A DNA stretch of 12,066 nt, taken from the IMG/VR virus record IMGVR_UViG_2531839374_000009, positions 1 to 12,066 of that record; one strand, written 5' to 3'. The translations under genes and the position numbers were made by a program. The notes beneath the pieces were generated by a model. That model ran no database searches and was not told where the DNA came from. It saw only the letters and a list, made by a program, of their open reading frames with translations. Positions 8,551 through 10,203 of this stretch are shown here, in pieces (position 1 is the stretch's first letter; each line of letters opens with the position of its first letter). This DNA comes from a virus. Its lineage: Duplodnaviria; Heunggongvirae; Uroviricota; Caudoviricetes.

Positions 8551-9695
8551 ATGAACATTCAACAGCGTATAGCAGAACGCTTGGTTCAGGCCAGAAACGA
8601 CGCAGGAATGAGTGCAAGCGCCGTCGCAGATGCGATCGGTGTTGTTCGTCAAACCTACAGTAAGTTTGAGCAGGCGCTAGGCGTCCCAAGCGTTACCCAA
8701 CTCATCATGCTCTGCAAGATTTTCGATAAGCCTGTCGGGTATTTTTATGAGCAAGATGATGGCGAGTTTCGTTTTGCAATGCGAGCAGATAGTCCGGATT
8801 TGTTGGATGCCAGACTTCGCAATGAGTTGATTGAAAAGTTAAAAATATCAATGCAATTGAGGAAGCTGCTGATGCTAATTTGCCAGAAGATCTTCCTAAC
8901 TCAATGCCTGTTTTTACCGCCAAAGCAGAAGATTTGCGAAGAGTCGAAGATAAGGCTATGGAAGAACGTTTCCGTCTTGGTATGGGAAACGCTACTTGCG
9001 TTGGTGACATTGTAGCCATTTTGGAAGCATCGGATATTCGAGTGATCCCGTTCAATCGCGAGGAAACCGATAAAGGGATGGTATTCGGATTTTCTGCGTT
9101 TTCGAACAAATACGGTACCGCGATTTATGTAAATGTTCACGACAGCATTTCAATAGAACGTCAAATCTTCAGTATTTGCCATGAATATGCTCATCTTATC
9201 TTCCACCGTGATGAGTATGATGGCCCTGCTAAAAGCTATAAAACTAATGGCAAAGCAATTTCACCGGAAGAAAAAGTTGCTAATCACTTTGCTGCTTGTT
9301 TTTTGGTACCAGAAAGCGCGTTGCGAAAACAATTCGTCATGCAAGGTGGTGGATGGGCGTATGAGGAAACCGTCCTTAGACTAAAAAGCATTTTCAGAGT
9401 ATCAGCCACTTGCATCATTGAGCGTCTTAGTAAATGTAATTTAATTAATCAGCAAAACACTAGATACCTATGGGCAACCGCCAATCGTAAAGGCTGGAAG
9501 AGACACGAGCCAAATCCCATAAGGGAAGCACTAAATTATAAAGGTCGCCTAACCGTCTTATCGCGTAAAGCATGGGAAGCCGGTTCCGCGTCGGAAACCT
9601 TCATATCTGAACTTTTAGAATTAGACAGAAAAGCTCTCAGCAATCTTCTGGATGAATGGTACGACGAACAGGAGGCCGGAGAGGATGCCGTTTGA
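8551..9695 (+). CDS. XRE-family HTH fused to ImmA/IrrE-type zinc metallopeptidase (DUF955/Peptidase_M78), apparently interrupted by a 1-nt deletion in the A5 run at 8841-8845
   Basis: HTH_3-like N-terminus (MSASAVADAIGVVRQTYSKFEQALGVPSVTQLIMLCKIF); frame-3 continuation from ~8835 (KNINAIEEAADANLPEDLP..) carries the HEXXH motif in SICHEYAHLIFH; frame-1 tail beyond 8840 is not protein-like. Confidence 0.6.
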
Positions 9696-10203
9696 ATGCC
9701 CCAGATGTGTTATCGATACGAATGTACTGTCTGATTTTTACGAAGGTAAATGCTTAGATCTTATCTGGCAAATTTACCCGGGTGGTGTGTGGATTGACCC
9801 CTATGTCTGCGAGGAACTAAAAGCTAAATACAATCTTGATGTTCAGGAACAGCTTACACGCCTGCAACTTCCATACAATTTCACCAATGATTACGAACCT
9901 GAACATTTTATTGAAATGGCTGAGATAAAAAATCGCAGGAGAGCATTGAAGTATGCGGACATAAGCTGCGTTGTTAACGCGAGAATACATGATGCAACAT
10001 GTCTTTCGGCGGATAATGCGGTTTATAAAACGTGTGCGGAACGCGGTGTAAAAGCCGCCCGCCACGGAGGGCTACTCCAGGAGGCTGTGCGCAGGAGATT
10101 TATCCACAAACAACAAGCCTTAATGCATTTCCAATTTTTCCTGGATCGTGGGTTAACGATGAAATCTTCTGTTCGAGAACAGATTCTTGCCAGCTTCGAA
10201 TAA
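9685..10203 (+). CDS. PIN-like nuclease domain protein (~172 aa; DUF4411-like size), candidate toxin/effector
   Basis: N-terminal CVIDTNVLSDF matches PIN beta1 acidic motif; further acidic residues at DPYVCEEL, KYADIS and RIHDATCLSADN; ATG 9685 behind GGAGG/GGAGAGG, overlapping upstream stop (9693-9695) by 11 nt. Confidence 0.55.
   Translation: MPFECPRCVIDTNVLSDFYEGKCLDLIWQIYPGGVWIDPYVCEELKAKYNLDVQEQLTRLQLPYNFTNDYEPEHFIEMAEIKNRRRALKYADISCVVNARIHDATCLSADNAVYKTCAERGVKAARHGGLLQEAVRRRFIHKQQALMHFQFFLDRGLTMKSSVREQILASFE

Follow-up and report, generated by a model that had tools for sequence, protein, structure and literature searches.

The window analysed here is a 12,066-nucleotide stretch of a P2-like Escherichia coli prophage (IMG/VR record IMGVR_UViG_2531839374_000009). 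Between the replication gene A and the portal gene, it carries a two-gene cassette in which a fusion of an XRE-type helix-turn-helix (HTH) domain with an M78-family metalloprotease (gene 1) is followed by a PIN-like nuclease (gene 2). By analogy with related systems, we consider that the pair represents, with a probability of roughly 0.6, a toxin-antitoxin (TA)-like, abortive-infection module of the RosmerTA type carried as cargo of the gpA-portal hotspot. The individual elements of this reading differ in their strength. The pairing of an HTH-M78 protein with a PIN nuclease is nearly certain as an architecture, TA behaviour is probable by the same analogy, and a role in phage defence is the somewhat favoured outcome.

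The HTH-protease and its PIN-like partner

Gene 1 (8551-9695, plus strand) encodes a protein of 381 residues once a frameshift in the window, discussed below, is repaired. Pfam models detected HTH_3 (E 6e-8, residues 13-65) and HTH_31 (residues 7-58), placing the HTH domain at residues 7-65 (8569-8745, plus strand), as well as Peptidase_M78 (PF06114, E 6e-12, 45.9 bits) with its core at 9126-9431 on the same strand. This search with hidden Markov models confirmed a preliminary description of the DNA, in which an XRE HTH and an ImmA/IrrE-type metallopeptidase with the motif HEYAH had been recognised. The motif (9180-9194) contributes H211, E212 and H215, and E241 is encoded at 9270-9272. Across 48 homologs with identities down to 21%, H211, E212 and E241 never vary, and H215 is kept in at least 90%; as judged from this alignment, the HExxH...E zinc site of gene 1 is complete. 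The AlphaFold2 model of gene 1 has a predicted local distance difference test (pLDDT) score of 86.6, falling below 50 at residues 70-75, a flexible segment after the HTH, and the C-terminal region is helical. In Foldseek comparisons, the protease part resembles IrrE, PprI and CapP (3dti, 8slm, 7t5t) and the HTH resembles P22 c2, SinR and DdrO.

Among the defence-system models of PADLOC, the repaired protein matched 15 RmrA models, the best being PDLC03947 (3.2e-35, 119.7 bits, residues 4-321 of 381), and also capP and capH models. It further matched the NCBIfam profile 'spr1629 family repressor/antitoxin' (antitox_spr1629) at 2.4e-24 and 86 bits, for which the equivalog cut-off lies far above, at 335 bits, and PHROG 2439. 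None of the PADLOC models for PD-lambda-2 matched gene 1, and membership in that system was rejected on this ground.

Gene 2 (9685-10203, plus strand; 519 nt in RefSeq) encodes 172 residues. The PIN motif IDTNVL, which the preliminary description had read at its start, is present, and the protein matched the Pfam PIN family (PF01850) at 24.8 bits, narrowly above the cut-off of 23.6. Its AlphaFold2 model reached a pLDDT of 94.1, and the best PDB matches found by Foldseek were VapC-type PIN toxins (1y82, VapC4 5h4g and Rv0301 3h87), with template modelling scores on the target of 0.6-0.69 and sequence identities to solved VapCs of 12-22%. When the PIN profile was run against PDB sequences, nothing meaningful was returned, and PHROGs contained no family for the PIN protein. 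Four acidic residues, D11 (9715-9717), E44 (9814-9816), D92 (9958-9960) and D110 (10012-10014), are invariant in the close PIN family. In a wider set of 27 aligned sequences, D11 shows no variation, E44 is kept in at least 90%, and the positions of D92 and D110 hold D or E in nearly all members.

The PIN family was assigned by comparing profiles. DUF4411 (PF14367), suggested beforehand as a family to check, gave no match to the PIN protein at E<=1 and was rejected; the evidence points to the COG2405/DUF3368 clade instead. The protein itself does not match DUF3368 (PF11848) directly at E<=1; precomputed PF11848 matches, some flagged as weak, exist on its homologs. When the PIN family was aligned by hhalign with a set in which six of 11 members match PF11848, the probability was 99.4% (E 2.9e-21, 159 columns), which supports the predicted placement of gene 2 as a divergent member of this PIN-like clade. 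An exhaustive search with the PIN profile, covering 1.84 billion representatives, retrieved only seven clusters at E<1e-10, followed by a tail of proteins of 160-180 residues, some with Pfam DUF3368; by this measure, the enterobacterial PIN family is a small, divergent branch. The same search also brought up an unusual multi-PIN repeat, a protein of 3,106 residues (P0122) in which the profile of the PIN family matches 18 separate stretches (E 1.9e-10).

The two genes lie in the same orientation with the 11-nt overlap that had been described, as the PIN gene starts with the ATG at 9685 and the stop codon of gene 1 occupies 9693-9695. A Shine-Dalgarno sequence, AGGAGG (9670-9675, plus strand), is embedded in the 3' end of gene 1, 9 nt upstream of this ATG. 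An in-frame ATG at 9652 was rejected as the start in favour of 9685 because 15 of 16 aligned sequences have the N-terminus MPF, the remaining one being truncated at its N-terminus, and because AGGAGG and the RefSeq annotation agree with the later codon. Read from this arrangement, the PIN gene is translationally coupled to gene 1.

The pair is retained well beyond the close relatives. In the window, as in enterobacterial relatives, the two genes overlap by 11 nt; in more distant ones, the spacing varies between an overlap of 17 nt and a gap of 16 nt. Counting the examined homolog loci with a complete downstream gene, HTH-M78 proteins of 42%, 41%, 33%, 31% and 26% identity (from Chromatiaceae and metagenomes) are all followed by a PIN-like gene, overlapping or within 16 nt. 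At one further locus (24% identity; L012), the contig stops 58 codons into the downstream gene, and the fragment begins with the PIN-like motif CIDTSSL. The two proteins also diverge in parallel, with identities of 41% for the HTH-M78 protein and 37% for the PIN in the Lamprobacter pair. The ratio of non-synonymous to synonymous substitution rates (dN/dS) is 0.035-0.15 for both genes, and both are under purifying selection.

Integrity of gene 1 in the window

The preliminary description had treated gene 1 as one gene overlapping the next, and here it has to be corrected. In the window, gene 1 is not a single open reading frame (ORF) but is split into two frames, with ORFs at 8551-9015 and 8880-9695, by a -1 frameshift at an A5 run (8841-8845, plus strand). 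We located the site from pairwise differences with E. coli CFSAN029787 (L001), which is 99.9% identical to the window, and with another strain (L002), which carries a 98%-identical cassette in a ParM/StbB-type hotspot. Both have A6 at this position, one A more than the window, and insertion of a single A restores a 381-residue protein that is 100% identical to WP_046880188.1 of CFSAN029787. Over about 10.7 kb, the window differs from CFSAN029787 by 12 single-base indels (at 1099, 1109, 1120, 1127, 1130, 1507, 1895, 2171, 3265, 3617, 8841 and 11361), essentially all in short homopolymer runs, and by two substitutions (2697 and 10428); at least six window genes are frameshifted relative to that genome. 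Because an indel-to-substitution ratio of 12:2 is typical of sequencing or assembly error and not of natural decay, the frameshift in gene 1 is very probably an artefact and not a real inactivation. A programmed or regulatory frameshift at 8841 was rejected because the run is only A5 or A6, the ORF is intact in all relatives, and the 11 other homopolymer indels are scattered over the window.

We also considered that the frameshift might be real and that the module might be a dead remnant in the source genome, decaying along with its prophage. The interruption of the portal gene by ISEc20 and the frameshifts in at least six genes would fit such decay. We nevertheless regard it as unlikely, because the pattern of the indels points to error in sequencing or assembly, the PIN gene is 100% identical to copies in intact cassettes, and the loss of a neutralising gene beside an intact toxin should be counter-selected. 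The insertion sequence (IS) itself, ISEc20 of the IS110 family, fills the last 618 bases of the window (11449-12066), and many E. coli genomes hold copies that are 99.7% identical to it. Its insertion cuts the P2-type portal gene, so that this prophage is unable to make a full-length portal protein; the portal remnant (10664-11448, minus strand) was identified from the RefSeq annotation of CFSAN029787 and the ISEc20 match.

A mobile cassette in the gpA-portal hotspot

The prophage genes in the window follow the order Dam methylase, gene A, two small ORFs of unknown function, the cassette, an ogr/Delta-like gene and the portal gene. The left boundary of the hotspot is the P2-type replication gene A (4990-7509, plus strand), an ORF of 839 residues annotated as a replication endonuclease in CFSAN029787. 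On the right, the ogr/Delta-like zinc-finger gene (10338-10613, minus strand) precedes the portal remnant; its assignment relies on the RefSeq annotation of CFSAN029787 together with a Pfam Ogr_Delta score of 23.5 bits, under the cut-off of 26.3. The cassette could be delimited as a unit of its own at 8276-10239 (plus strand), since its homology with the hotspot of L002 spans exactly this interval at 98% identity. Its GC content of 0.44 is lower than that of gene A (0.56) and of the whole window (0.524), in keeping with the lower-GC island between gene A and the portal gene that had been noticed from the sequence. The shared stretch includes, at 8280-8366 (plus strand), the 3' remnant of a partition gene for StbB (Plasmid_stab_B). 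The remnant was found by tblastn as 31 residues with 77% identity to the StbB of L002, and RefSeq labels its counterpart in CFSAN029787 as an incomplete 'plasmid partitioning/stability family protein'.

The cassette occurs in 32 of 5,426 complete E. coli genomes, always in the chromosome, and on 15 IMG/VR prophage contigs. Wherever the upstream flank is available among the IMG/VR loci (14 of 14), both genes are intact and lie downstream of a gpA homolog, with gpA identities of 31%-100%; after the pair comes a portal homolog in all 13 loci that reach that far. The P2-type hotspot position proposed earlier is thus found both in the window and in the IMG/VR loci. Within this comparison, the cassettes are 83-100% identical, whereas in several loci gpA is just 31-36% and the portal just 29-34% identical. 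A conserved cassette amid backbones of about 30% identity indicates that the cassette moves between very different P2-like phages into the same slot, a clear case of cargo exchange at a hotspot. Searches of sequenced phages in INPHARED (megablast, tblastn) and of plasmids in PLSDB (tblastn) gave no match. The gpA-gpQ locus has been described as a defence hotspot (PMC9122126, PMC9519451).

The position could be read in another way. A classical TA pair might stabilise the prophage or the hotspot cargo solely by post-segregational killing, as an addiction module with no anti-phage role. The 98%-identical copies follow directly after intact ParM and StbB partition genes, of which the window retains the StbB remnant, and on a Rahnella chromosome the pair stands alone among metabolic genes, keeping the 11-nt overlap. 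The TA-like anatomy would be identical under either reading. What makes a stability function alone improbable is that the cassette keeps recurring at the gpA-portal position, a defence hotspot, in P2-like phages that have diverged widely, together with the finding that tested RmrA-type systems do defend (Millman 2022; PMC10440598). The neighbourhoods of distant homologous pairs also speak against it, as these adjoin an MmeI-type restriction-modification (RM) enzyme, the type I subunit HsdR, patatin and nuclease genes. In Lamprobacter modestohalophilus (L004, 1-7302), one flank of the pair holds the MmeI-type RM enzyme together with a Uma2 endonuclease and an MbcA/ParS-type antitoxin, and the other flank a DEAD/ResIII helicase; the gene content of these surroundings resembles that of a defence island.

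Several other elements were observed around the cassette. Gene A is separated from it by two overlapping ORFs of 143 and 122 residues (7506-8266, plus strand), which match PHROGs 14984 and 6418/2510 of unknown function, accompany the version of the hotspot in CFSAN029787 and in two IMG/VR loci (L021, L025), and may be further hotspot cargo. At 8231-8233 lies the insertion site of IS600 in the close relatives CFSAN029787 and L025, where 3 bp are shared by the two BLAST pieces around the site; IS600 is absent from the window and from L021. Upstream of gene A, two Rfam families scored above their gathering thresholds on the plus strand, the Hfq-binding RNA isrK (4074-4148, 67.3 bits) and the C4 antisense RNA (4184-4271, 81.8 bits), and no Rfam match was found within the cassette.

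Proposed function and comparison with known systems

The region preceding gene 1 (8484-8547, plus strand) proved conserved when loci from E. coli, Gibbsiella and Rahnella were aligned, and it is a candidate autoregulated promoter/operator. On the plus strand, it contains CATAAT (8484-8489), a possible -10 element, followed in the same block by the partly palindromic GTTAGTAATAATTAAC (8490-8505), and further conserved blocks with GCCACCATTGTTAAAT (8524-8539) and AGGTGA (8542-8547), the Shine-Dalgarno sequence of gene 1. Scanning for consensus promoters gave no strong sigma-70 match on the plus strand upstream of gene 1. The GTTA/TAAC half-sites could serve as a candidate operator for the HTH.

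VapC-type PIN proteins are RNA-cleaving enzymes. Together with the role of RmrA-type proteins as antitoxins and the cleavage of HTH repressors by M78 proteases, this activity is attributed to the cassette because related systems behave so. In the mechanism we propose, the HTH-protease would repress its own operon and keep the PIN nuclease inactive, through direct binding, limited expression or both. A signal of phage infection or of DNA-damage type might then activate or destabilise the HTH-protease. One option is self-cleavage in the linker after the HTH, resembling the action of ImmA, IrrE and CapP on separate HTH repressors; M78 proteases of this type cleave HTH repressors upon a damage signal (PMC5499597, PMC10440598). 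The freed PIN would cut RNA and arrest the cell, and infection by a competing phage would be aborted.

A more specific version holds that the cassette is a functional anti-phage system of a Rosmer subtype missed by present-day detection tools, in which the fused M78 protease is the infection sensor and, upon a phage cue, cleavage of its HTH linker, by itself or by another agent, derepresses the operon and frees the COG2405-type PIN RNase. We put this forward tentatively, as a rather improbable possibility in its full form. If true, it would provide the first mechanistic model of how RmrA-type protease antitoxins are triggered.

Control might also be exerted at the level of transcription only. 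The HTH-protease would then be a damage sensor, like CapH/CapP or ImmR/ImmA but fused, that controls PIN expression with no neutralisation at the protein level. Such a switch would be consistent with the Foldseek matches to CapP, IrrE and PprI, with the PADLOC capP/capH matches, with the conserved, partly palindromic upstream motifs, and with the regulator-protease-nuclease scheme proposed by Matelska 2017 (PMC5499597). However, gene 1 precedes the PIN gene in one operon and the two are translationally coupled, which means that both proteins would rise together upon derepression, and the 11-nt overlap and the parallel divergence (41% vs 37%) are typical of physically interacting proteins. A purely transcriptional switch thus appears improbable to us. 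Reversed or non-canonical roles, in which the PIN-like protein would hold a harmful HTH-protease in check or PIN catalysis would play no part, find a precedent in PD-lambda-2B, an Xre-peptidase fusion that is toxic alone and rescued by its partner (PMC9519451), but they are very improbable because the PD-lambda-2 models do not match gene 1, the conservation of the four PIN acidic residues in the wider clade argues for an active nuclease, and tested RmrA-type proteins are antitoxins (Millman 2022; PMC12795458).

Several observations weigh against a RosmerTA-type defence module and temper the probability we assign to it. The window, as it stands, carries gene 1 in broken form, and the position of the 98%-identical copies after ParM and StbB suits a maintenance role equally. 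The likeness to RosmerTA suggested at the outset held for the antitoxin half, as the repaired gene 1 matches RmrA at 3e-35 over nearly its full length, but failed for the PIN, which matched none of the PADLOC RmrT models at E<=10; therefore, a complete Rosmer system would go uncalled by standard tools. In PD-lambda-2, the only E. coli system with an Xre-peptidase fusion to have been studied, the peptidase protein is itself toxic (PMC9519451), and the roles within the pair are therefore not to be assumed. In the literature that we searched, no experimental test of a PIN-type Rosmer pair was found.

RosmerTA itself shares with the cassette a two-gene operon of adjacent, co-oriented genes, an antitoxin composed of an HTH and a zinc peptidase (M78), and its location on mobile elements. 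In the preprint of Millman et al. 2022, a delta-rmrA mutant could not be transformed or obtained, and RmrA-type proteins behave as antitoxins. The difference lies in the partner, which is a PIN-fold nuclease in the cassette, whereas the RosmerTA of Millman has a toxin of unknown function, and the RmrT of phage Kita is a membrane depolariser (PMC10440598). If the cassette protects against phages, a PIN-nuclease branch would be added to RosmerTA, of which PADLOC-type profiles recognise the antitoxin half only. It would also offer an example in E. coli, convenient for experiments, with which to ask how infection is sensed by HTH-metalloprotease antitoxins.

The architecture has previously been predicted and catalogued, and the cassette is a further member. 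Matelska 2017 (PMC5499597) predicted three-component TA systems in which a COG2405 PIN is preceded by an HTH-DUF955 fusion gene; this HTH-DUF955 plus PIN-like (COG2405/DUF4411) configuration is exactly the same architecture, presented there as a purely computational prediction. Millman et al. 2022 cite it in naming RosmerTA, and Ernits 2023 (PMC10440598) noted PIN-like partners for the ImmA/Rosmer antitoxin node. In the supplement of Rousset 2022 (PMC9122126), WP_001603071, encoded by gene 1 of the 98%-identical variant of the cassette (as in L002), figures as an untested entry in a table of P2-hotspot arrangements with a partner given as 'hypothetical', outside the systems discussed in the main text. 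P2 old/tin and the other gpA-gpQ cargo (Rousset 2022) occupy the same genomic slot, and the cassette proteins are unrelated to Old and Tin. The only PADLOC matches of the PIN were weak ones to the PIN candidate PDC-S70 (4.3e-4 and 8.7e-4), one representative of which was reported as protective in a preprint.

With VapBC, the cassette has in common a VapC-fold PIN toxin with four acidic residues, overlapping genes and an antitoxin gene in first place. It differs by its antitoxin, an HTH-metalloprotease of 381 residues in place of a small VapB-type protein, and by a C-terminal helical extension of the PIN of DUF3368 type. ImmR/ImmA, DdrO/IrrE (PprI) and CapH/CapP likewise combine an XRE-type HTH with an M78 protease, with fold matches to IrrE, PprI and CapP, and respond to damage signals. 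There, repressor and protease are two distinct proteins, whereas they are fused in the cassette, and the gene downstream in the cassette is a PIN nuclease and not a mobile-element, SOS-like or cyclic oligonucleotide-based antiphage signalling (CBASS) operon. In the design of the regulator, the cassette also resembles PD-lambda-2 (Vassallo et al. 2022) and RipAB/Spr1630-Spr1629, which contain a fusion of an Xre-HTH with an ImmA-like peptidase within a TA-like operon. PD-lambda-2, however, consists of three genes with a HigB-like partner and a peptidase protein that is itself the toxic one (PMC9519451), and RipA, which RipB/Spr1629 neutralises, differs from the PIN nuclease in targeting the sliding clamp (PMC12795458).

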